Positions 284 to 12,305 of a DNA stretch of 12,630 nt are shown in pieces. The notes under the pieces are model-generated. The model saw only the letters and a list, made by a program, of their open reading frames with translations. It made no database searches and was not told where the DNA came from. The position numbers and the translations under genes are program-made. This DNA is from Candidatus Aenigmatarchaeota archaeon. Lineage in GTDB: Archaea; Aenigmatarchaeota; Aenigmatarchaeia; CG10238-14; WAMV01. Each line of letters begins with the position of its first letter. Position 1 is the stretch's first letter. The DNA lies in assembly GCA_015522145.1 (NCBI GenBank), contig WAMV01000018.1:1-12630 (forward strand). The letters run 5' to 3'.

Positions 284-1336
284 ATGGATTTTGATTTTTC
301 TATGGTCACCACATGGAACAGAGTTGATGGGATAGCTGATTTCTCCAAACATTTGGTAAAAGGATTTGAAAAGCTTGGGAAAAGGGTGGAAATTGTAGAA
401 ATAAAAAAACCGGGGAATAAAAATCCCATTTATTGGATTAAGCTTGCTAAAAAAACAAGAAGCAAAAAAATACTAATTCAATATGAGCATGGAATTTGGG
501 GGACAAGATTTACTAATCTAGCTGTAATCCCATTCTTTCTCGTAAGTAAACTGAGAAAGAAGGAAATTTATTCTATAATACATACATACTTTATTCCAAC
601 AGGAGGATTGAAAGGATTTATAAGAAAAATAATGTACTATCCTGCCAGAAAAGTTGTTGAGCTTCTTTCTAATAAAGTTATTTTTTTGAATGAAGCCTCT
701 TATAAACTATCCAACAGTAAAAACAAAGTTTACATACCCCATGGATGTCTGGAAGAACAAGAAAGATTGAATAAAGAAAAATGTAAAAAAACATATGGGT
801 TTAGCAAAAAAGATATTGTTATAGTAATCCCAGGTTTCGTTTCTCCCTGGAAGGGTCATCAAAAGGCTATAGAATTTTTAGAATATTTGCCTCAGAACTT
901 CAAACTATTTATTGCTGGCTACATATCACATTGGAAACAAAAATTGTTTTACAAAGAACTTAAAGAATTTGTTAAGGAGAGAGGATTAAAAAACAGGGTG
1001 AAATTTTTGGATAGGTTTGTTAAAAAAAATGAATGGAAATACATCTTTAGCTTGGCAGACGTTGTGATATTTCCATATTTATTAACAACCCAAAGCGGAA
1101 TATTCAATGTAGCAATATCTTATAAAGTTCCTATAGTTGCTAGTCAACAGCCTTTTTTTGTTGAAGTTAAAAGAAAGTACGACTGTATAATTATAAGTAG
1201 TATAGAAGATTTTCCAAAAAATATTATAACTGCAATGAAAAAAGAAAAGGTGCTCGCTAAAAAATCAGAGAAATACATAAAAGAAAGAAACTGGGGTTCC
1301 ATGGCTAAAAAATTTGTTAATTTAATGGGGGTTTGA
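284..1336 (+). CDS. GT4 (GT-B fold) glycosyltransferase, mannosyltransferase-like subgroup
   Basis: Motifs: N-terminal DGIADFSKHL, QYEHGIWG, IPHG, PGFVSPWKG, ADVVIFPY..TQSG...A..Y.VPIVAS, and C-terminal RNW...A. Confidence 0.9.
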   Translation: MDFDFSMVTTWNRVDGIADFSKHLVKGFEKLGKRVEIVEIKKPGNKNPIYWIKLAKKTRSKKILIQYEHGIWGTRFTNLAVIPFFLVSKLRKKEIYSIIHTYFIPTGGLKGFIRKIMYYPARKVVELLSNKVIFLNEASYKLSNSKNKVYIPHGCLEEQERLNKEKCKKTYGFSKKDIVIVIPGFVSPWKGHQKAIEFLEYLPQNFKLFIAGYISHWKQKLFYKELKEFVKERGLKNRVKFLDRFVKKNEWKYIFSLADVVIFPYLLTTQSGIFNVAISYKVPIVASQQPFFVEVKRKYDCIIISSIEDFPKNIITAMKKEKVLAKKSEKYIKERNWGSMAKKFVNLMGV

Positions 1337-2094
1337 TGATAATCGGAATGTTTAGAAGGGCAAAAACTTACATAAGCTTAGGAAAGAGGTTGATAGATAG
1401 ACTAAGGATTATTATAATGATATCTTCTTTTTATCAAAGATTGAAGAAATTTGGTTGGCTCGGTAAAAACACTAAAGTCATCGTCAACGGCTTAGAATTT
1501 GAACTACCAGACACTGTTAGTTTTTACATACTGTTAAGCGAAAAGGAAGTAGAAAGATTGCTCAGAAAAAGAGTCAAGAAAGGTTGTGTATTTGTAGACG
1601 TAGGCGCCCACATAGGTAAATATTCCATTCTTGTAGCTACCATGTGTAAAAAAGTGTATGCTGTTGAACCGAATAGTTTAGCTCTGAAATATTTAAGATA
1701 CAATGTTAGGATAAATGGTTTGAATAATGTGAAAATTCTAAATTTTGCGGCCTGGGACAAAAATACTCAGCTTGAGTTGTTTTATCCTGGTGGGAGTGGA
1801 GGGGTTAACTTATTTAAAAGAGGTAAACTAATTCAGAAAGTTATAGCAAAAAGGCTTGACGATGTAATCAAAGATAAAGTAGATATAGTAAAGATAGATG
1901 TGGAAGGTGCGGAATACAAAGTTCTGCTTGGAATGAAAGGAATTTTGAAAAGATATAAGCCTTTACTAATTGTAGAAATACAGAACGAGAATAAGAAAAA
2001 GGTTTTTGAACTGCTAAAGAGATATTCATATAAAGGCAAAAAATTATGGAAGGGTATAGGTCAAGAGTACTGGGTATTCGAGGCCAAAAAATGA
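1336..2094 (+). CDS. FkbM-family SAM-dependent methyltransferase
   Basis: Motifs VFVDVGAHIGKYS (SAM motif I), VYAVEPN, LDD, KIDVEGAEYKVLLG and P.LIVE. The ATG at 1336 overlaps the upstream TGA (TGATG) and follows GGGGG. The track start is TTG at 1333. Confidence 0.92.
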   Translation: MIIGMFRRAKTYISLGKRLIDRLRIIIMISSFYQRLKKFGWLGKNTKVIVNGLEFELPDTVSFYILLSEKEVERLLRKRVKKGCVFVDVGAHIGKYSILVATMCKKVYAVEPNSLALKYLRYNVRINGLNNVKILNFAAWDKNTQLELFYPGGSGGVNLFKRGKLIQKVIAKRLDDVIKDKVDIVKIDVEGAEYKVLLGMKGILKRYKPLLIVEIQNENKKKVFELLKRYSYKGKKLWKGIGQEYWVFEAKK

Positions 2095-2171
2095 AAAAGA
2101 AGAAGAAAGACTGGAAAGAAATAATGAAAGAAAGGTTAAAGGATTTGGGGTATTTTGATGAAGAGGAATGA
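2091..2171 (+). CDS. Unannotated 26-aa micro-protein MKKKKKDWKEIMKERLKDLGYFDEEE (stand-alone RLxxLGY motif)
   Basis: ATGA overlap with the FkbM stop, SD-like GAGG at 2080-2083, fills the whole FkbM-cysD gap and overlaps the cysD start by 14 nt. EIMKERLKDLGYF aligns ungapped with the CysD tail EYVMQKLRALGYM. Confidence 0.7.
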   Translation: MKKKKKDWKEIMKERLKDLGYFDEEE

Positions 2172-2973
2172 ATTGCAAGAACTAGAAGCAAAAAGCATAT
2201 TCATAATAAGAGAAGCTTACAGAGTTTTTAAAAACAAAATAGCAATACTAGCTAGCTTTGGTAAAGATTCCACAACCTTGCTTTATTTGGTTAGAAAGGC
2301 TTTTCTTGGTCATGTGCCTATGCCAGTAATACACTTAGATGCTCAAACTGAGTTTGAGCAAGTTTATGAGTTTAGGGATAAGCTTGCTAAAGAATGGAAG
2401 CTTAAGCTAATCGTTGAAAAATACGGCAAAGGTATAGATGAGTCAGAAGAAGCAAAAAAAGTTTGTCATTGTACTTTATTCAAGACACAGGCTTTAAAAA
2501 GAGTTGTAGCTAAGTATGGCTTCAAAGCTTTAATAGTTGCTATAAGAAGGGACGAGCATGGCATAAGAGCTAAAGAAAGATACTTTAGCCCAAGAAAGAA
2601 TTTTACTTGGGATTATCTAAGGCAGCCACCAGAACTTTGGGAGCAATTTAACGTTTCTTTAAGCTTAAGCAAGGACATGCATATAAGAGTACATCCCATG
2701 CTTCATTGGCGCGAAATTGATGTGTGGCAATACATTAAGCAGGAGAGAATTCCAATAGTTAACCTTTATTTCTCGGGAGTAATTAAGAAAGGTTATAGAT
2801 ATCGTAGCCTTGGTTGTAAAAATTGTACTGTGCCTATACCCAGTCAGGCTAAAAACATAGATGAGATAATTGAAGAATTGAAAACCACAGAAATTGGAGA
2901 AAGAGCTGGAAGATTAAAGGGTAAAGAAAAAGAATATGTTATGCAAAAGTTAAGGGCTCTTGGCTACATGTGA
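2158..2973 (+). CDS. cysD: Sulfate adenylyltransferase (ATP sulfurylase) subunit 2
   Basis: Motifs LEAKSIFIIRE, PP-loop SFGKDST, RRDE...RAKERYFSPR, QPPELW, RVHP...W.EIDVWQYI..ERIPIVNLYF, YRSLGC, ERAGR and C-terminal LGYM. Lies directly upstream of a CysN-like GTPase. ATG at 2158 is preceded by GGGGT; the track start is TTG at 2155. Confidence 0.9.
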   Translation: MKRNELQELEAKSIFIIREAYRVFKNKIAILASFGKDSTTLLYLVRKAFLGHVPMPVIHLDAQTEFEQVYEFRDKLAKEWKLKLIVEKYGKGIDESEEAKKVCHCTLFKTQALKRVVAKYGFKALIVAIRRDEHGIRAKERYFSPRKNFTWDYLRQPPELWEQFNVSLSLSKDMHIRVHPMLHWREIDVWQYIKQERIPIVNLYFSGVIKKGYRYRSLGCKNCTVPIPSQAKNIDEIIEELKTTEIGERAGRLKGKEKEYVMQKLRALGYM

Positions 2974-2978
2974 TTTTT

Positions 2979-4157
2979 ATGTTAAGCATAGCCTTACTTG
3001 GTCATGTAGACCATGGAAAATCAACACTCATTGGAAGGCTTGTTTATGATACGAAATCATTGCCAAAAGAAAGGCTTGAGGAAATTGAGAATGTAGCAAG
3101 AGCTCTAGGCCAAAAGCTAGAGTTTGCGCATGTGGTGGATGCTTTAGAGGAAGAAAGATTAGAGCAAAAAACAATAGAAGCAAGTCAAACATTTTTTAGA
3201 ACGAAGAAAAGGGAATATGTTTTAATTGACGTGCCAGGCCATAAAGAGTACATAAAAAACATGGCTACTGGGGCAAGTTTTGCTAAGTTTGGCATACTTA
3301 TTGTAGATGTTACTAAGGGTATAGAGGAACAAACAAAGAGACATGCTTTCCTAGCAAAATTACTTGGAATAAACAATGTAATTGTGGTAATAAACAAAAT
3401 GGATCTAGTAAATTATAAAAAGAAAAAGTTTAACTTAGTTTGCAAGAAAGTTAATGAACTGCTTGAAAAACTAAAATTAAAAAAAGTTGCATGCATACCA
3501 ATTTCGGCATATTATGGAGATAACGTTGTAAAAAGAAGTAAAAAAATGGATTGGTATAGAGGAAGGACCTTAGTAGAAGTTTTAGATTCATTAAAAGAAG
3601 GGGAGGAAAAGGGAAAGACAACGCTTGTTGTTCAGGATAATTATGATGGTTTGGCATTTGCCTATTTAATTAAAGGTTCTCTACATGTTGGGCAAAAATT
3701 AACATGTTATCCTGAAAAGAAGGTTGTTAGGATTGAGGAAATTCTAGATGGTGATAAAAAAGTGAAAAGGGTTGATGCGCCTAAAGCAATAGCTATAAAA
3801 ACAAACAAAAAAGTTAAGAGAGGTGATGTTCTTTCATTATCGAAATTAAATACGAAATCAAGCTTTAGGACAAGGTTGTTCTGCTTGGATAGCAAAATAA
3901 TCGAGAATAAAAAATACAAGCTAAGGTTATTTACCCAAGAAAGAGAAGCTGAAGTTAAGAAAATAGAAAGCGTCGTATCCCTAAAAGATTTGAAAGAGAA
4001 AAAAGCAAAGCATTTGAAGTTGGGAGATATAGGCATAGTGAAACTAAGAACAAATCATAAGATTGTTTATTCAAATTTTGAAGAAATGAGAGAGCTAGCT
4101 AGATTTGTTATACTAAATAGAAAGGGTCAAATAATAGCAGGTGGTGTAATTTTTTAA
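2979..4157 (+). CDS. cysN: Sulfate adenylyltransferase subunit 1 (EF-Tu-like GTPase), no fused APS kinase domain
   Basis: G-motifs GHVDHGKSTLIGRL, DALEEER..KTI, DVPGHKEYIKNMATGAS, NKMD and ISAYYGDNVV..S..MDWY.G.TL. C-terminal RFVI...IIAGGVI. Adjacent to cysD. Alternative start is GTG at 2970. Confidence 0.88.
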   Translation: MLSIALLGHVDHGKSTLIGRLVYDTKSLPKERLEEIENVARALGQKLEFAHVVDALEEERLEQKTIEASQTFFRTKKREYVLIDVPGHKEYIKNMATGASFAKFGILIVDVTKGIEEQTKRHAFLAKLLGINNVIVVINKMDLVNYKKKKFNLVCKKVNELLEKLKLKKVACIPISAYYGDNVVKRSKKMDWYRGRTLVEVLDSLKEGEEKGKTTLVVQDNYDGLAFAYLIKGSLHVGQKLTCYPEKKVVRIEEILDGDKKVKRVDAPKAIAIKTNKKVKRGDVLSLSKLNTKSSFRTRLFCLDSKIIENKKYKLRLFTQEREAEVKKIESVVSLKDLKEKKAKHLKLGDIGIVKLRTNHKIVYSNFEEMRELARFVILNRKGQIIAGGVIF

Positions 4158-4179
4158 CTACTAAGCTTTTATTTTGATT

Positions 4180-4989
4180 ATGCAACTAGTAAGCATTAAC
4201 ATCCCAACTTTTAATTCTGGAAAAACGCTAGAGAAAACATTGGAAAGTGTTAAAAATCAAACTTACAAGAACACAGAGGTTATTGTCATAGATAGTTATA
4301 GTAAAGACAATACTGTTGAAATTGCTAAGCAATATGGCGCTAAAGTTTACTATTACAAAGGTGCTTTGCTTGGAGCAAGATATCTTGGTGTAAAAAAAAG
4401 TAAGGGTGAATATATTTTGCTATTGGACTCTGATCAAATACTGGAAAAAACAGCTGTAGCTAGAGCCGTTAAGCTAATGAAAAAATGCGATATGCTCTGG
4501 TTGGAAGAGAGAAGCTATAAACCAAAAGGTTTTTTGGAAAAAATCTATGACGCTGATAGGCAGCTGGTTCAAAAACATTACAAAGATTTTTTAAATCCTT
4601 TGGGTGGCGTTATTTTGCCTAGGTTTTTTAAGAGAAAATTGTTGCTAAAAGCTATGAATAACATTCCTAAAAACATACTGAGAATTTGCGTTGCCCACGA
4701 CCACGCTATAATTTACTATGAATGTTATAAGCTGAGTAAGAAAATAGGAAAGCTTAGTCATGCGGTCTACCATATAGAGCCTTCTAACATACTAAAATTG
4801 TTCAAGAAAACTGTTCGCTACGGTAAAACAACTAAAATGCTTGTAGAAAAAAATGTATATCCTGAGCTTCTGAAAAGTAAAGTTAGGTTTAGAAAATTTT
4901 ACAAGGAAGACTTAAGTCTTTCGATAAAAAGTATGATGCTCAGAACAATAAGAGCTGTACCTTACATGCTTGGTTATTATTTAGCTTAA
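4180..4989 (+). CDS. GT2 (GT-A fold) glycosyltransferase
   Basis: Motifs VSINIPTFNS, LESVKNQTY, VIDSYSKDNT, AR..G...SKGEYILLLDSD (DxD). ATG at 4180; the track start is TTG at 4174. Confidence 0.92.
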   Translation: MQLVSINIPTFNSGKTLEKTLESVKNQTYKNTEVIVIDSYSKDNTVEIAKQYGAKVYYYKGALLGARYLGVKKSKGEYILLLDSDQILEKTAVARAVKLMKKCDMLWLEERSYKPKGFLEKIYDADRQLVQKHYKDFLNPLGGVILPRFFKRKLLLKAMNNIPKNILRICVAHDHAIIYYECYKLSKKIGKLSHAVYHIEPSNILKLFKKTVRYGKTTKMLVEKNVYPELLKSKVRFRKFYKEDLSLSIKSMMLRTIRAVPYMLGYYLA

Positions 4990-5002
4990 AAGAATTTTAA
5001 TT

Positions 5003-6124
5003 ATGGAAGTTAGCATTGTGTCATCCTTCCCAGAGATGAATTGTGGTATCGCACAATATACCTATCAGCTTGTGAAACATTTGAGTAAAAATATATTCGT
5101 TAGGGTTTACACACATAAAGAATCGAACCCAAAGAAATTAAAGAATGTTGAGGTTGTCAAAGCATTTGATAGAAACGATTTTTTCTCTTATATAAAGCTG
5201 AAGAATTTGCTTAAGGAAGAGAAAATTGTTCATGTACAACATGAGCACGGACTTTATGGTAAATTTGGTGGTCCTTTTAACGGATTGTTTGGAATTTACC
5301 TCTTAAGGAAATTGAGAAAAGCTATAGTTACATTACATACTGTGTTTACTCCTAGTTATATCCTTGGGTATTATGATTTTTTGAAAAGGTATAATCCAAT
5401 AGTAGGAAAAACCATCCTAAGAAATTTCGTTTCTGCTGGTATTTATCTAAGAGAATTTTTAGTATTTCCCAAAAAACATGTCTACATAGTTCATTCCTAT
5501 GAACAAAAGAAAGTTCTAAATGAAAGAGGTATCAAGAATGTTTACGTAATCAGACATGGTGTGCCTGTAATAAAAAGACTAAGAAAAAGGAAAAGAAGAG
5601 AGTTAACTTTGCTCTGTTTTGGGTTTGTTGATTACAGAAAGAATTATGAGCTTGTAATCAAAGCTATGAAATTTCTGGATGCAAAACTAATCATAGCCGG
5701 TAAGGCCAATGAATCGTATTTGACCTTGCTTAAAAAATTAGCTACTAAGCATGGTGTTCAAGATAAAGTAACCTTTATCAACAAATTCCTAAGTGAAGAG
5801 GAAAAGAAAAGGATTTTTGAAAATTCTGATATATTAGTTTATCCCGTGCTTTCTATGAGTCAGAGCGGAGTGGTTTCTGATGCTATAAGCTTTAGAATTC
5901 CTGTAATAGTCGGTGCTTTTCCCTATGTAAAGGAACTTTTCCGAGAATTTGGAAATTTGGGTTATTTAATTAAATCGAATGATGAAAAAGAAATAGTGAA
6001 AGGAATAAATTTCATAACAAACAATTACAAAAAAATAAAGAATAGCCTTGAGAAGGCATATAAAGAAATAAATTGGGAAAAAACAGCTAGGAAACATTTG
6101 AAAATTTATGAGGTGTTTATGTGA
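5003..6124 (+). CDS. GT4 (GT-B fold) glycosyltransferase, same subgroup as 284..1336
   Basis: Motifs CGIAQYTYQL, HVQHEHGLYG, VTLHT, IRHG, FGFVDYRKNYE, SDILVYP..SQSGVVSDAISFRIPVI and NWEKTARKHLKIY. Confidence 0.9.
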   Translation: MEVSIVSSFPEMNCGIAQYTYQLVKHLSKNIFVRVYTHKESNPKKLKNVEVVKAFDRNDFFSYIKLKNLLKEEKIVHVQHEHGLYGKFGGPFNGLFGIYLLRKLRKAIVTLHTVFTPSYILGYYDFLKRYNPIVGKTILRNFVSAGIYLREFLVFPKKHVYIVHSYEQKKVLNERGIKNVYVIRHGVPVIKRLRKRKRRELTLLCFGFVDYRKNYELVIKAMKFLDAKLIIAGKANESYLTLLKKLATKHGVQDKVTFINKFLSEEEKKRIFENSDILVYPVLSMSQSGVVSDAISFRIPVIVGAFPYVKELFREFGNLGYLIKSNDEKEIVKGINFITNNYKKIKNSLEKAYKEINWEKTARKHLKIYEVFM

Positions 6125-6816
6125 TACTCATATTAGCGTATGATGGTCTAGAATACAATTACGTTGGGGAATTTAATCTTAAAGGACTCATGCAGAAAGA
6201 TTTTGGAAAAACCGATATTAGCGAGTTTTCTGAGCCAAGAACCATGGTTTTGTGGTCTTCTTTTTTAGCTGGAAAAAATCTAGAGAAAAGAATACTAAAG
6301 CTAAAGAACATTTGGAAGTTTAAGCTTAAGCCAAAAGAAACCTTCTTTAAACATTTCAAAAAATGGAAGGCTATAGATGTACCTGGCTTAACTCATAAAG
6401 AAGAGGAACATGAACTAGAAAGAAAGCTTTTGAAGATGTATTTTGAAGAAAATTTAAGCATAAAGGAATATGATAAAATTGTTTTCGAGCACCACAAAGA
6501 AAACAAAGAGGAATTTTTTAAATCGCTGGAAGAGGATTATGAAATAATAATGGCTTATTTTCCGTTAGCGGATTTAATCGGTCATCTAAGCTTTGGATTA
6601 AAAAGTAAGATGAGGTTAGTTTACAAAGAGTTGGAAAGCATAGCAAAAAAAGTTGAAGCTGACTTCAAGCTAATAATTTCTGACCACGGTATGAAGGCTG
6701 TTGGTAGGTATGGTGATCACAGCAATTATGGTTTTTGGTCTACCAACAAAAAGCTTGGTACTAAGAATCCTAAAATTACAGATTTTGCAACTTTAATTTT
6801 AAATTTCTCAAAATAA
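6121..6816 (+). CDS. Compact alkaline phosphatase-superfamily protein (type I phosphodiesterase/nucleotide pyrophosphatase-like)
   Basis: Metal-ligand and catalytic motifs ILAYDG, PRTMVLWSSFLAG (Thr41 at the nucleophile position), DLIGH, IISDHG and GDHS..G. The GTG start overlaps the upstream TGA, with SD GAGGTG at 6110-6115. No signal peptide or TM segment is evident. Confidence 0.85.
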   Translation: MILILAYDGLEYNYVGEFNLKGLMQKDFGKTDISEFSEPRTMVLWSSFLAGKNLEKRILKLKNIWKFKLKPKETFFKHFKKWKAIDVPGLTHKEEEHELERKLLKMYFEENLSIKEYDKIVFEHHKENKEEFFKSLEEDYEIIMAYFPLADLIGHLSFGLKSKMRLVYKELESIAKKVEADFKLIISDHGMKAVGRYGDHSNYGFWSTNKKLGTKNPKITDFATLILNFSK

Positions 6817-8230
6817 ACGATGTAAAGAATTCTACATCATTTTTGCTTATAACCTTAGAAATAATTAAAGATTTGAAATAGACAATGAATGAAAAAAGAA
6901 TAAGAATCAGCTTATAGGTTAAAGCTGCTTCTATAAAATCTATGATTAACTGAAGGAATAGAAAAATTAGCAGAGAAATTATGAAAGCAAATGTTTGTTT
7001 TTTATCAAATCTAATTCCTATTTTTTCTTCTTTTACTAAAACATAAAGAGAAAAAATTGATACAAATGAAAAGACTAACAAATATGATAGGGATGCGCCA
7101 AAAACACCATAATAATAAGTTAATGTAATCAAAACAGGTATAAATACTAGAGAAATTAGTTTCAAGTTCACTACATCTCTAATTTTACCTAGGGAGAAAA
7201 GAATAGAAGAAGTGTGCCTGAATAGTATCATGAAAAAGAATCCTATTGTTAAGGGTGCAACAAGACTGGATGCATCTAAATACTCATAAGACGATAAAAG
7301 CAAAACTATGGCATCTTGAAATACAATGAAAGATAAAATTAGCGGGAGTGAAAAAATCAATGTGTACTTTAAATAAAAGTTAAAAAGTCTAGATATTCTT
7401 GTTTTGTTCCTATAATTTCTGGAAAAAAGCGGGAAGGTTGATTGTAATAGTATTATACTGAAGATAAAGATTAGCCTAGAAGCGCTTTGTGCAAGAGAGA
7501 AAATACCTGTTGCCTGTTGTGTTATTAATAAGGGTATTATTATAAAGGGTGCTACGCTTATTACATTATCCACTAAAGCTGATATGAAATTGGTAAGTGA
7601 AAAGCTAAACAATCTTTTTTTGAGTTTGGAAATTTCTCTTCCTGGCTTTTCAAAAACAAAAAGAACGGCCAAAGAAAAAAACAATACATATGCTACAAAA
7701 ACTATGGTCGGTGTGATTCTATACAGGAAGGCAAGCAAAACAACAGAAGCTAAAATTAGAGAATATCTAAAAACGTTAGAAATGAATAATCTATTCATTC
7801 TTTGGAGTCCATAGTTAAAAGCATAGAACACATTAAAAATAGCTGTAGCTGGTATGAATAAAGCTATTAAAAATACGATTGTTCTGGGCAATTTCAAGTA
7901 GAAAGATAATAAGCCAGATAGAAGAGCTGTTATAAAAGCAAACGTAATAGAGGTTATCAAAACAAATCTAAATGTTATAGATAAGTACGCTTTTACTCTT
8001 CTGAAATTTCTCTCTTCCGCTATTAACTTGTTTAAAGCTCCTGGCAATCCAAATAAAGAAAGAAATGATAAAAAGTAAGCTATGTTTAAGGCGGTTGAAA
8101 AAATGCCTAGATCTGCTGGACTCATGAACTTTGCAAGAATTATTTTTAGCACCATTACAAACCCAAATAAGAAAAAGGTATTCAAGCTTAAGAAAAACAA
8201 ATTATAAGCTAACTGTTCTCTCAATTTCAT
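6776..8230 (-). CDS. Wzx/RfbX-like oligosaccharide flippase (MOP superfamily)
   Basis: 484 aa with roughly 12-14 hydrophobic segments. Motifs ILAKFMSPADLGIFS, FGLPGALNKLIAE, GIFSLAQS, FPLFSR and YYYGVFGASLS are typical of polysaccharide-export flippases. Confidence 0.85.
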   Translation of the reverse strand: MKLREQLAYNLFFLSLNTFFLFGFVMVLKIILAKFMSPADLGIFSTALNIAYFLSFLSLFGLPGALNKLIAEERNFRRVKAYLSITFRFVLITSITFAFITALLSGLLSFYLKLPRTIVFLIALFIPATAIFNVFYAFNYGLQRMNRLFISNVFRYSLILASVVLLAFLYRITPTIVFVAYVLFFSLAVLFVFEKPGREISKLKKRLFSFSLTNFISALVDNVISVAPFIIIPLLITQQATGIFSLAQSASRLIFIFSIILLQSTFPLFSRNYRNKTRISRLFNFYLKYTLIFSLPLILSFIVFQDAIVLLLSSYEYLDASSLVAPLTIGFFFMILFRHTSSILFSLGKIRDVVNLKLISLVFIPVLITLTYYYGVFGASLSYLLVFSFVSIFSLYVLVKEEKIGIRFDKKQTFAFIISLLIFLFLQLIIDFIEAALTYKLILILFSFIVYFKSLIISKVISKNDVEFFTSFILRNLKLKLQNL

Positions 8231-8691
8231 AACTTAATCTTCTTAGTGATCAAATAATAAATTGATGACACTATCACCAAGCTTGCTAGTATGTCAGAAG
8301 GGTAATGGACTGCCAGAAATATTAATGTAAGCGGTAAAGCTATCAAGAAAATGTAAAATAGCAGGCTTTTTCTATCTAAAAATAAGGCAACAGAAAAGTA
8401 TATGACTGAATGCAAGCTTGGGAAGCTTGGATCATTTTCTTTCTCAACCAAAGGTATTAAATTAAGTTCTACGTATGGTCTAGCCCTATTAACAGAAAAT
8501 TTCAAGCCTACTCCAATAAGAGCTGAAATCATTAAAACTAAAAGAAATTTCTTGAGTTTTTCATCCCGAAAAAAGTAGAGACATATGATTGGTATGAAAT
8601 AGCTTGAATAATAGATTAGCGCGAAGAAATCTGCTAATAGCTTGTTTTGGATTAGTAAATTGTAGAGTGCTTCCACCACTAATTGCTCCAT
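8227..8691 (-). CDS. PAP2-family membrane phosphatase (putative polyprenyl/dolichyl-pyrophosphate phosphatase), variant motifs
   Basis: Motif 1 KFSVNRARP (Kx6RP), motif 2 SFPSLHS, motif 3 LIFLAVHYPSD, plus hydrophobic helices. Coupled to the flippase by an ATGA overlap. Confidence 0.8.
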   Translation of the reverse strand: MEQLVVEALYNLLIQNKLLADFFALIYYSSYFIPIICLYFFRDEKLKKFLLVLMISALIGVGLKFSVNRARPYVELNLIPLVEKENDPSFPSLHSVIYFSVALFLDRKSLLFYIFLIALPLTLIFLAVHYPSDILASLVIVSSIYYLITKKIKL

Positions 8692-11351
8692 AATATTTCT
8701 TTTACTTTTTCTTTACCTTTATAGAAGTATATTGGACCGTTGCATTTAATACATCTCCCGCTTAGCGTAATTGTTTCATAAGTTTCGTTACAATATGAAC
8801 AGACGAAACCGTCAAAACCAATAACTTTCTTAGCTTTACCATTATTTACTATAGAGCTCAAACTTAACTGTTTGCCCAAATTTAATATGTCTTGCCTTTT
8901 GTAGCCTAATGCCTCAAAAACTCTTTCTAATGGTGGTAATATTTGAGATTCTAAATAGTACTGGGAATCTATTTTGAGATTGTTTTGTTTAACGTATTCT
9001 GGATCCTCTGCCCTCTTAGAGACCATTTGGGGGCCTTGTATAATTACGTAGCCGACTCTATCTCCTATACCAGGTATGTTTGCCACTCCCCTTTTCTTTA
9101 GCTTTTTTACAAGCTCTATATGTGGTTGCACACCTTTGTACAAGTGCAGTGGTCTTGATATGCTTTTGTAAATAACAAGCTTGTCTATAGGTATCTCATT
9201 ATTTTGTAGTTTTTGAATTACATCTCTTATGTATAACAAAGCCTTTTCTGGTTTTTCCTCTTTAAGAATAATTTCCAATATTTTCTCGAGCGTTTCTTCC
9301 GTTAACGTGCACCAATCCCTACGCACAGTTTCTATTCCCTTCATTACTATTTTTTCTTTGTAGCCTGTGTCGCTTTTCTCTAGCGATAAGCCAGCATATC
9401 TCTTTTTAGAAAGTATAAGCAAAGTTTTGAAAACACTTTCTATCTTCATCTTAACTACACCTAGCTCGCTGTTTATTAGCTCAGCTAGCTCTTCTCCTAT
9501 TTTGAAAAGTTTCTCTATATCTTCTGTGTCTGCTTTTATCATTACGCTATCTGTATCGCCATAAACAACTTTATAGTTTGTTTTGGTTTCTACAATGGTT
9601 TTGGTTTTAGAAATTAGAAATCTGCCTGATGCAGTTATAGCATTAGCTATGTCAAGCAAATAAAGCCTAGCCCTTAAATAGCCTGTATAGCCATAGAAAG
9701 CATTGGCTAGTATTTTAAGAGCAAGCTGTTCCGCATTTAAGGCCTGCTTAACTTTTTCATTCTTTTCTTTCTTTAGCTTTTTCTTAACTTTGTTTCTACT
9801 TTCAATTAATTGCCTAAGAATTTTTGGGAATATTCCTTCCCTAACTTTCTTAGAAACGAATTTTACTTTATTAGGTGCTTCTATTGTTTCAACGTCATAC
9901 TTTTTTGTTAAAATTGTTGTCGGGCAAATGTTATAACCTATGATTATGTTTGGGTACATTGATGCAAAGTCAAGATAAATAACGTTTTTATGAAAACCAA
10001 CTACAGGGTCAAGAACTAAAGCACCTTTAAGCCCCTTCAAGCTTCTTTCCTCAGTTCTCTTCATAACTTCTTTATCGCTTGGTTTTAAAGGTACAACAAA
10101 ACCGTGTTTATCAAATTCCCTAATTAATAAAATTTCCAACCTGCTTGCCTCACCACCATCCAAAACATCTTGCAATAAGGCACCAGATACTCTAGACAGT
10201 GCTAAATACGTATCTATAAGCTTTAGAGTATTGAATACCTTGTAAGTAATTTCTGAGTCTTTTATTGCGTAATCAACAAGCTTCCTTAATTCTTCCTTAC
10301 TTCCTTTTTCCCAAATTTCCTTTATTTGGCTGTGAGGTATGTCTATTTTACCCTCACCAATTATCTGCTCAGCAACATCTCCCAAACCAAATCGCTTAAA
10401 CCTTAACATACCTTTTTTATTATATTCCTGTAGAATTGGATACGGATCTACTACTATTCTGCCTGGCACATTAACCCTTTCTGTTTGACCAAATTTTTTA
10501 TGAACCGCGGGCTTTGTCGAGCATCTACCAAGGGTTTTTGGCAACTTGTTTTTCTCCAGCCTTTTTAACAAGAAAGGGAAGTCGAAGCGCAAAATGTTGT
10601 AACCAAGAATTATGTCAGGATCGTAGCTATCAACAATGTTTAGGAATTCTTTTAGCATTTCCTTCTCACTCTCAAAGGATAAAATGTTATCACCATTTAT
10701 CTTTTTAGTTGCTACCAAAGCCAATTTTCTTTTCTTTTTATAAGGCGGGTCAAAATATAGGCTTATGATTATGATTTCTGTGTTCTCTGGATCAGGCAGG
10801 CCTTCGCTAGCAGCCTCTATGTCGAAAGTTAGTATCCTAAACTTGCTTTCTTTAGGCTCAATTTCTTTTATCTTTTTTAGAGTTAGTTTTATCTTAGCTT
10901 TGACGTTTTGGGTATTGACTGGTATGCCCTCAACCTCATACCATCTTGACCCAAACAAACCGTAATCTATCATAAACCTGTACCTAAAAAGAATGTCTGC
11001 CTCGTAAGCTTCTTTAACCAAACCAGAAGATAGTAGCTTTTCTTTAACCTTAGGTACTTTGGATGGATCGCTTAAGGTTATTTTTAGTAACTTTACTTTT
11101 TCTGGGTTATAGCCAATTGGTAGAAATTTCTTGACTTCCTCAACGTTGACTATTAAATTATTAAACTCCTTTTTCAGAAATTCAGAAATTTCTTTATCTT
11201 TAACCTTTGGCAAAACGTAGAAATAAGGTAAGAATCCTTCATGAAAACATACAACACTTTTACCATCTTCCGTCTTGCCAAAAATCCTTATGACTGGGTG
11301 GCCATTAGGCAAGATATAATCACAATCAAGCAACTGAAAGGCCACCCTCAT
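8679..11351 (-). CDS. polB: Family B DNA polymerase with 3'-5' exonuclease and an extra C-terminal Cys4 zinc finger
   Basis: ExoI TFDIE, ExoII GYNILRFDFPFL, ExoIII YAIKDS. Polymerase motifs DFASMYP, QLALKILANAFYG, YGDTDS, KKRYAG and KGIETVRRDWC are all intact, with no intein. C-terminal CSYC-x12-CIKC. Confidence 0.97.
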   Translation of the reverse strand: MRVAFQLLDCDYILPNGHPVIRIFGKTEDGKSVVCFHEGFLPYFYVLPKVKDKEISEFLKKEFNNLIVNVEEVKKFLPIGYNPEKVKLLKITLSDPSKVPKVKEKLLSSGLVKEAYEADILFRYRFMIDYGLFGSRWYEVEGIPVNTQNVKAKIKLTLKKIKEIEPKESKFRILTFDIEAASEGLPDPENTEIIIISLYFDPPYKKKRKLALVATKKINGDNILSFESEKEMLKEFLNIVDSYDPDIILGYNILRFDFPFLLKRLEKNKLPKTLGRCSTKPAVHKKFGQTERVNVPGRIVVDPYPILQEYNKKGMLRFKRFGLGDVAEQIIGEGKIDIPHSQIKEIWEKGSKEELRKLVDYAIKDSEITYKVFNTLKLIDTYLALSRVSGALLQDVLDGGEASRLEILLIREFDKHGFVVPLKPSDKEVMKRTEERSLKGLKGALVLDPVVGFHKNVIYLDFASMYPNIIIGYNICPTTILTKKYDVETIEAPNKVKFVSKKVREGIFPKILRQLIESRNKVKKKLKKEKNEKVKQALNAEQLALKILANAFYGYTGYLRARLYLLDIANAITASGRFLISKTKTIVETKTNYKVVYGDTDSVMIKADTEDIEKLFKIGEELAELINSELGVVKMKIESVFKTLLILSKKRYAGLSLEKSDTGYKEKIVMKGIETVRRDWCTLTEETLEKILEIILKEEKPEKALLYIRDVIQKLQNNEIPIDKLVIYKSISRPLHLYKGVQPHIELVKKLKKRGVANIPGIGDRVGYVIIQGPQMVSKRAEDPEYVKQNNLKIDSQYYLESQILPPLERVFEALGYKRQDILNLGKQLSLSSIVNNGKAKKVIGFDGFVCSYCNETYETITLSGRCIKCNGPIYFYKGKEKVKEILWSN

Positions 11352-11372
11352 GAAATTAAAATTTCTAATAGC

Positions 11373-12305
11373 TTATTTAATGATTTCATGTTTTGAGAGG
11401 TTAATTTCACAACTTTTTAAATTTATTCCATACAGATGAACGTTCTTATAGTTTTTGTAGAAATTTTCCTTTGATTTAACAATTATGACGTCTGGAATTG
11501 TGTCAAGCATTAGAGGATCTTCCTTATAATAAAAAAGCTTTGGGTTCAGATGTCTTTTCTCAAGTAGTATAGACAAGGTTTCTAATAAGCTAAGCTTCCA
11601 TTTTTTGGAAATTTGGGTTATTAATGCTTCGTCTAAAAAAAGAAATTTGTATCCAAGATAATTGAGTATGGCAAATTTCCCAACTTTGATTAAAGAATCC
11701 TTTATTTCATAGGGCTTCTCAAACTTAACATGGAAATTTCCCGCTTCTCTGTTAATACCTATGGAGAAATTTAACTCTTTAGCTTTTTTCTCAAAACCTA
11801 AAAATTTAATTTGTTTTAGTTTATTGTTGGAAATTTTGAACACAGCTACATCATTTGTTTCAAGTATATCATAATTTTTAACATTATCAACGGAAATTTC
11901 CAAACTACCTGTTAAATCCTCTATAATTAAGGAATCCACGCTCTTATCAACAACCATAGCTAGGGTTTGGAAATTTCCCATAGTTTTACCTTTATCTATT
12001 GATACTAGCTGGAAAGCAAATTTCTTACTGGCTATTTTTTGAAATTTCTTAAACCTTTCTATAAGCAAAGTTTGTATTTCTTCAACTTTTGTTAGCTTAC
12101 CATTAAGTAGTTTAACGAATTCAGGTTTAGATTTCCTGCTCAAATATTGTAAAAAATGCTTTTCTGTTATGAAAATTTCTTTAACGTTAGATGTAATAAA
12201 GTTGAAGAATTCATCTAGCTCTTCTGTAGGTAATTTTTCTAAAACATCCTTGGTTATTTGATACCCTCTTTCTAGAAATTTCCTAATAATTTTTTGCTTA
12301 TCCAT
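11373..12305 (-). CDS. Shortened, catalytically inactive homolog of PolD small subunit DP1 / polymerase B-subunit
   Basis: DP1-like N-terminus (IIRKFLERGYQIT), helix ERFKKFQKI, OB-fold strands (TLAMVVDK...IIEDLTGSLEI...NDVAVF) and C-terminal LLEKRHLNP...DPLMLDTIPDVIIV, recalling DP1 LL.kRHLAP...D.LvI...PD. The calcineurin-like metal motifs (DxH, GDxxDG, GNHD, GHxH) are absent. Confidence 0.7.
   Translation of the reverse strand: MDKQKIIRKFLERGYQITKDVLEKLPTEELDEFFNFITSNVKEIFITEKHFLQYLSRKSKPEFVKLLNGKLTKVEEIQTLLIERFKKFQKIASKKFAFQLVSIDKGKTMGNFQTLAMVVDKSVDSLIIEDLTGSLEISVDNVKNYDILETNDVAVFKISNNKLKQIKFLGFEKKAKELNFSIGINREAGNFHVKFEKPYEIKDSLIKVGKFAILNYLGYKFLFLDEALITQISKKWKLSLLETLSILLEKRHLNPKLFYYKEDPLMLDTIPDVIIVKSKENFYKNYKNVHLYGINLKSCEINLSKHEIIK

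Follow-up and report, generated by a model that had tools for sequence, protein, structure and literature searches.

Does a short contig of an Aenigmatarchaeota genome encode a two-subunit DNA polymerase built from a family B enzyme and a relic of polymerase D (PolD)? The contig WAMV01000018.1 (assembly GCA_015522145.1, Candidatus Aenigmatarchaeota archaeon) was analyzed over its 12,630 nucleotides, hereafter the window. On its reverse strand, an open reading frame (ORF) for a family B polymerase (PolB, P0001) lies 21 bases from an upstream ORF for a 310-aa protein (P0002), and both are intact. An earlier reading made without database searches (the sequence-only reading) had described a PolB ending in a CxxC-x12-CxxC module beside an inactive relative of the PolD subunit DP1 and had proposed that they pair; the ORFs and the tail were found as it described them. 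We consider it likely, at a probability of roughly 0.88, that this PolB, with a Cys4 tail like that of the PolD subunit DP2, and the DP1 homologue, which lacks nuclease motifs, form a heterodimer that has likely replaced PolD as the chromosomal replicase. The window genome (G000) comprises 19 contigs and 323 kb and is 81% complete. It was compared with a sample of its order (61 genomes) and a sample of its phylum (151 genomes, counting the window genome; the others are at least 85% complete). Loci, genomes and families within the phylum are numbered with the prefixes L, G and f, respectively.

To identify P0002, database and structure searches were combined. As a single query, P0002 gave no Pfam match above the cut-off, no PDB sequence match and no homologue in a large database search, and a PF04042 search of the window genome found nothing. 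However, a related ORF lay directly upstream of PolB at each of the 30 loci retrieved with the best-matching PolBs, and the family was recognized because these syntenic homologues could be aligned (29 sequences; L009, a cut ORF of 185 aa, was left out). The family profile matched DP1 structures with E values of 4.9e-31 to 6.7e-28, compared with about 1e-3 for Pol31 and 7e-3 for Dpb2, and seven of the 29 members matched Pfam DNA_pol_E_B at E up to 0.1. With an AlphaFold model of P0002 (predicted local distance difference test, pLDDT, 84.8), Foldseek ranked DP1 first (E 2e-11) and all eukaryotic B subunits next. A VIA search of 48,161 chains with the same model aligned 249 residues with DP1 (Z 17.4, root-mean-square deviation [rmsd] 4.3); eukaryotic B subunits scored Z 12.6–16.2, and anything else scored below 10. 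By family profile and modeled fold, P0002 is a DP1 homologue, which bears out the kinship with DP1 and B subunits that had been read from its sequence.

The domains named in the sequence-only reading were also recovered. VIA matched the model's N-terminal domain to 7e15_F, a 61-aa chain of a DP1N–Gins51C–GAN structure (Z 7.8, rmsd 2.5, 56 aligned). From PMC9023282 we infer that this chain is DP1N, the GINS-binding domain of DP1. A fold of the OB (oligonucleotide/oligosaccharide-binding) type was matched as well, and P0002 keeps the RHLNP (251–255) and IPD (270–272) segments. All five DP1 nuclease motifs are missing, in agreement with the earlier observation that there are no phosphoesterase metal ligands. 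Among the 29 members, motif I was found in six, motif II in five, motif III in none, motif IV in four and motif V in three. P0002 is the shortest of them (310 aa vs 313–395 aa) and shares 22–31% identity with its relatives, and its loss exceeds point changes, as only about 130 residues of the phosphoesterase part remain. Judging from these motifs, P0002 is likely nuclease-dead. That it still acts as a nuclease is highly improbable: three members (L012, L016 and L003) retain four of the five motifs, but P0002 retains none, and the Asn-His of motif III is absent from all 29. In the three better preserved genes (L012:319-1488, L016:4163-5320 and L003:4180-5346), GEID replaces motif III, and metal binding may persist. 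At L009 (4258-4815), a DP1 homologue of 185 aa, consisting of the N-terminal domain and OB fold, directly precedes a zinc-tailed PolB and represents either a minimal form or an assembly error.

The partner, P0001, keeps its polymerase motifs and its ExoI–III residues, so that its sequence is consistent with the proofreading which the sequence-only reading assigned to it. In a quick IQ-TREE phylogeny of 25 proteins, with taxa other than eukaryotic and Baldrarchaeia sequences, P0001 fell among 19 zinc-tailed PolBs including the L032 protein (Shimodaira–Hasegawa-like approximate likelihood ratio test [SH-aLRT] 99), and the second PolB of the window genome fell outside this clade. The closest named relatives of P0001, at 45–53% identity, are three Aenigmatarchaeota, two unclassified archaea and one Nanoarchaeota-labelled record (six of 12 loci were named).

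The tail of P0001 contains four Cys only, arranged as C851-x2-C854-x12-C867-x2-C870 (window 8742–8801). All four were invariant in an alignment of 32 tails, from which L017 and L034 (duplicates), L022 (unread bases) and L033 (truncated) had been dropped. The RRxP motif was present in 20 of these tails; the window copy has YETITL instead. Positions 60–94 of the tail profile matched DP2 in 6knb_B, 6hms_B and 6t8h_B (E 1.5e-6 to 1.8e-5), the best match being DP2 residues 1127–1161 (Zn-III, E 1.5e-6). As judged by this profile, the PolB tail derives from a DP2 Zn-III-type ribbon. Between the thumb and the ribbon lies a putative segment that we take to be like a PCNA-interacting peptide (PIP) box; its Gln is nearly invariant in the tail alignment, and the aromatic pair is absent from the window copy. 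The metal of the tail is presumably zinc; Pol delta CysB binds Fe-S (PMC7544198).

We then determined how widely the two genes are linked. They are adjacent and co-oriented in 57 of the 61 order genomes; the exceptions are three genomes from which both are missing and one in which they sit on separate contigs. Within the phylum sample (n=151), a DP1-like gene was found in 146 genomes, a zinc-tailed PolB in 138 and DP2 in eight. Among the 129 genomes with both genes listed, a count that leaves out nine weak, unlisted rows, the layout was tandem in 93, convergent within 8 kb in 23, otherwise on the same contig in three and on different contigs in 10, confirming the linkage between the two genes. 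In the Nanoarchaeota-labelled L035, which has the convergent layout of those 23 genomes, the zinc-tailed PolB (3980-6658) and the DP1-like gene (9447-10361) are 2.8 kb apart. G001 carries the winged-helix, DP1-like and PolB 5′ genes twice, with the additional copy at C21:753-2649.

DP2 and the zinc-tailed PolB were nearly mutually exclusive across the 151 genomes. Seven of the eight DP2 genomes make up family f12, in which DP2 is present in 7/7 and the zinc-tailed PolB in 0/7; the six listed DP1-like frames of this family are long (480–523 aa in five, 858 aa in one). The eighth, G057, carries a canonical DP1–DP2 pair on a 3-kb contig besides the derived pair. This canonical pair (L043, G057:C64:1-3058) is possibly bin contamination. 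In the window genome, neither DP2 nor a separate canonical DP1 was found at 81% completeness, a point that the sequence-only reading had wanted checked. The incompleteness of this genome, together with the DP2 of G057 in the same order, could be taken to mean that P0002 partners a DP2 in the unassembled part and that the zinc-tailed PolB is an accessory enzyme. We regard this as very unlikely, since DP2 occurs in one of the 61 order genomes and in none of the 29 that are at least 90% complete, and the DP2 of G057 adjoins its own canonical DP1.

To evaluate the proposed heterodimer, P0002 was modeled with PolB residues 825–890 and zinc in three runs. The score was 0.85, compared with 0.00 for the best control; at least 96% of contacts were common to the runs, with a partner pLDDT of 77 or more. 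Of solved pairs, 116 of 157 reached the mark applied to such models, as did two of 215 mismatched pairs. In the model, PolB residues 858–865, 874–876 and 884–888 contact P0002 residues 70–85, 117–136 and 150–151, and the predicted interface centres on loop Leu863, which is kept in the window PolB. The contact through the zinc ribbon that the earlier proposal anticipated is thus predicted by the model. As PolD complexes have been solved, this score shows likeness, not binding.

The two genes might instead be co-transcribed relics, with the DP1 homologue too decayed to bind PolB and either acting alone (e.g., on single-stranded DNA or GINS) or being lost. The shortness and divergence of P0002 among its 29 relatives, the missing RRxP of the PolB tail and the ORF cut to 185 aa at L009 all fit such decay. 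However, the P0002 ORF is intact and all three of its domains were modeled, the four Cys are kept along with the Leu863 on which the predicted interface centres, and 11 other tails without RRxP still have the partner gene, making decay of the pair an unlikely explanation.

Several observations weigh against a PolB–DP1 replicase. The window tail lacks the basic RRxP loop that in PolD contacts DP1, filling its acidic groove (PMC6355029). The predicted interface resembles the solved PolD one, and the model score may stem from the predictor's memory of PolD. G057, of the same order, also holds a canonical DP1–DP2 pair, and at 81% completeness the absence of DP2 from the window genome is not proven. 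Moreover, a second PolB (C13:7218-9623), intact-looking, without a ribbon and with a clear PIP-like box at its end, is present in the window genome, as in most relatives, and could share replication.

If the PolB and the DP1 homologue do form the replicase, PolB would synthesize and proofread DNA, and the DP1 homologue would act as an adaptor without catalysis of its own. In the model, the DP1 homologue receives the ribbon at its OB fold and at the helix preceding that fold. By analogy with DP1N in PolD, the DP1N-like domain may link GINS and the MCM helicase to the polymerase. The replicase role is suggested by the DP2 trade-off and by the place of the genes behind cdc6; DP1 genes sit behind cdc6 in many euryarchaea (PMC2643942).

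The pair itself is not new, a point on which the sequence-only reading had advised a literature check. For Aenigmatarchaeota, PMC7544198 (2020) reports PolBs of group B6-aenigma1, which carry a single DP2-like zinc motif, as well as a group of inactive DP1s named 'Aenigma_GB_GCA_002789635-like', and proposes that the B6-aenigma1 PolB replaced DP2; PMC4104785 predates this description. Table S4 of the 2020 paper places B6 and DP1 of the type genome, our locus L032, 60 bases apart, and the L032 DP1 matched the P0002 family profile at E 8.9e-104. The window pair is a new instance of this published system, with which it shares one DP2-type Cys4 motif, intact exonuclease motifs, an inactive DP1 and probably, given a genome only 81% complete, the missing DP2. 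It differs from the L032 type system in its shorter DP1 (310 vs 344 aa), the lack of RRxP in its tail and an upstream gene that encodes a winged-helix protein rather than cdc6. PMC12680538 (2025) reports interaction of DP1 with tailed PolBs by AlphaFold3 and yeast two-hybrid in Aenigmatarchaeota and Baldrarchaeia; two-hybrid binding is described for two Aenigmatarchaeota DP1–PolB pairs, both from genomes other than that of the window. The conserved operon as such was not found in print, with the 2020 supplement incomplete and two scanned 2025 supplements and the FigShare neighbourhood file outside the scope, and literature searches found no biochemical or structural study of the pair.

With archaeal PolD, the window pair shares the division of DP1 into three domains, a ribbon resembling DP2 Zn-III and the gene position that DP1 genes occupy behind cdc6 in many euryarchaea. 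However, its catalytic subunit is a PolB, its DP1 homologue lacks nuclease motifs and about half of the phosphoesterase domain, and its 60-residue tail shows no evident DP2 helical bundle. The sequence-only reading had likened the pair to the eukaryotic replicases. This holds insofar as Pol alpha, delta, epsilon and zeta also combine a family B chain, a Cys4 tail and an inactive DP1-derived subunit, with proofreading residues in the catalytic chain of Pol delta and epsilon. It does not hold for the tail, which has one Cys4 motif instead of CysA and CysB and is too short for the two-motif domain of Pol alpha and epsilon, and both window partners match PolD better than the eukaryotic proteins. 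Baldrarchaeia PolB3-DP2CTD and DP1 likewise combine a PolB bearing a DP2-derived, DP1-binding tail with a lineage lacking DP2. By the description in PMC12680538, the Baldrarchaeia tail is full length, whereas the Aenigmatarchaeota tail is shorter and degenerate, and Baldrarchaeia are the closer Pol delta-like case.

The gene upstream of the DP1 homologue raises a further question, as the slot usually held by cdc6 contains an ORF for an 86-aa winged-helix protein (P0003), 7 bases from P0002 and 57 bases from the contig end. In the order, the slot before the DP1-like gene held canonical cdc6 in 17 genomes and a winged-helix gene in 40; both were found together in none, and the region was absent from four. 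Across the phylum sample, canonical Cdc6 was found in 0/41 genomes of families f1, f2, f3, f5 and f6 but in 107/110 of the rest, whereas the winged-helix family, of about 85 aa, holds the slot in these five families and was found in 39/41 of their genomes and in 3/110 others. As flanking genes are common to most loci of both slot types, the exchange seems to have occurred in place; literature searches found nothing on it.

P0003 was rejected as a Cdc6 relic, because it has no profile similarity to the Cdc6 domain (probability 0.6% against the Cdc6 winged helix); Cdc6_C had no match in the window genome. Two fold searches listed generic winged helices (Z about 10), with no Pol32/p66-like chain among the top rows of either, which makes a third polymerase subunit of this kind at most somewhat less likely. 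The absence of the winged-helix gene from cdc6-bearing genomes with the same polymerase argues against a core subunit. On the upstream side of the gap, winged-helix loci (L044–L059) usually have a second gene, for a helix-turn-helix (HTH) protein of about 130 aa. A tentative and rather doubtful explanation is that, in one clade including the window genome, canonical Orc1/Cdc6 and the origin recognition box (ORB) were replaced in place by an ATPase-free, iteron-type winged-helix initiator acting on phased TTTTATGAA repeats, after PolB had taken over from DP2, with the second small HTH gene upstream and the origin unchanged. Against this, a divergent Cdc6-like ATPase persists in the window genome (C13:3110-4117, 337 aa) and in G051, and weak Cdc6_C matches remain in 15 of 19 f2 genomes. 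The Cdc6-like gene and the second PolB are 3 kb apart on a contig other than the window. Table S1 of PMC12680538 lists one genome with Cdc6-2 only. The comparison that can be drawn with known initiators is limited to protein type, P0003 being a single 86-aa domain. In Sulfolobus, the winged-helix protein WhiP reportedly specifies an origin instead of Orc1/Cdc6.

Repeats and base composition at the locus were examined for marks of an origin. TTTTATGAA arrays with a period of about 21 bp occur in the gaps of several winged-helix relatives, with six copies at period 21 in L054. On the G038 contig, no other stretch is as dense in such repeats; the array is not outstanding in G051 or G027 and is weak in other f2 gaps. 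An ORB-like pattern was found at the locus in 14/17 cdc6-type and 0/40 winged-helix-type genomes. In cdc6-type genomes such as G019 (C6:28662 and 33855) and G006 (C21:364-5743), ORB-like boxes occur on either side of the entire cdc6–DP1–PolB operon, both upstream of cdc6 and immediately downstream of PolB.

In the L044–L063 gaps, whichever the slot type, the palindrome TATAACNNNGTTATA or a close variant of it is found upstream of the replicase genes. The palindrome was rejected as an origin mark, since it recurs before SUF genes (G051:C1:663445, G038:C1:532615) and before the same HTH gene (G027:C2:739410). These positions fit a transcription-factor site, and the palindrome suggests shared regulation of the replicase operon and the SUF genes or their HTH gene. 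In three winged-helix genomes, third-position GC skew turned near the locus, with a minimum at 233 kb in G038 (locus at 236 kb), a maximum at 310 kb in G027 (locus at 301 kb) and, in G051, a maximum at 186 kb followed by a plateau as far as 240 kb (locus at 223 kb); each turn lay beyond 500/500 gene-order shuffles, a lenient control. With one minimum and two maxima, the usual rule would place the terminus at the locus in two of the three. No clear turn emerged in a cdc6-type control that covered 400 of 610 kb. Because of the mixed signs and the uninformative control, GC skew was not accepted as proof of an origin at the locus. On each of the three contigs examined, the second TATAACNNNGTTATA copy is found close to the opposite skew turn.

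Features of the replicase locus and their coordinates in the window
Feature	Position	Strand	Evidence or remark
PolB, 890 aa, P0001, group B6-aenigma1	8679..11351	-	Pfam DNA_pol_B E 2.5e-117, exo E 6.5e-38; B6 clade SH-aLRT 99
Shortened, likely inactivated DP1/B-subunit homologue P0002, 310 aa	11373..12305	-	Profile, Foldseek, VIA, motif tally
Winged-helix protein P0003, 86 aa	12313..12573	-	Slot is orc1/cdc6 in most of the phylum
PAP2-family gene	8227..8691	-	13-base overlap with PolB end; similar ORFs 3′ of PolB in several relatives
P0002 helical N-terminal domain, residues about 1–59, DP1N-like	12129..12305	-	VIA
P0002 OB fold, residues about 97–170	11796..12017	-	VIA, RPA-type OB folds Z 8–10
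What remains of the P0002 phosphoesterase domain (about 130 aa), retaining RHLNP, IPD and NYK, without metal ligands	11376..11774	-	Alignment, AlphaFold model, motif check
PolB ExoI FDIE (176–179), ExoII YNILRFD (251–257), ExoIII YAIKD (361–365)	10257..10826	-	Sequence
PolB motifs A DFASMYP, B KILANAFYG, C YGDTDS, all intact	9546..9971	-	Sequence
Putative PIP-box-like QLSLSSIV (828–835), between thumb and Cys4 ribbon	8847..8870	-	Sequence
PolB C-terminal Cys4 ribbon, DP2 Zn-III-like	8682..8819	-	Tail alignment, profile, complex model
Single copy of TTTTATGAA, upstream of the P0003 gene	12592..12600	-	Contig ends 30 bases further

The remainder of the window is of another kind. Positions 284–8230 form a glycosylation cluster with three glycosyltransferases, an FkbM methyltransferase and a flippase, inside which lies a CysD/CysN-like pair (2155–4157); a 231-aa ORF (6121–6816) has no Pfam match. 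At 323 kb, the window genome is smaller than all 60 listed relatives (at least 400 kb, rounded), yet is rated 81% complete.

Beyond the published pair, this analysis adds the phylum-wide linkage of the two genes, their near-perfect trade-off with DP2, a decay series of DP1 and a clade in which no canonical cdc6 was found and a small winged-helix gene occupies its slot. If P0003 is an initiator, chromosome replication would start in this clade by a mechanism new to archaea; if its role is confined to regulating the operon, the clade must initiate through the divergent Cdc6-like paralogue or another route. The decay series of DP1, from four of five nuclease motifs retained to half of the domain gone, shows the minimal needs of a B subunit, and the pair, with 310 and 890 aa, is a compact natural model for the transition between PolD and PolB holoenzymes of eukaryotic style.

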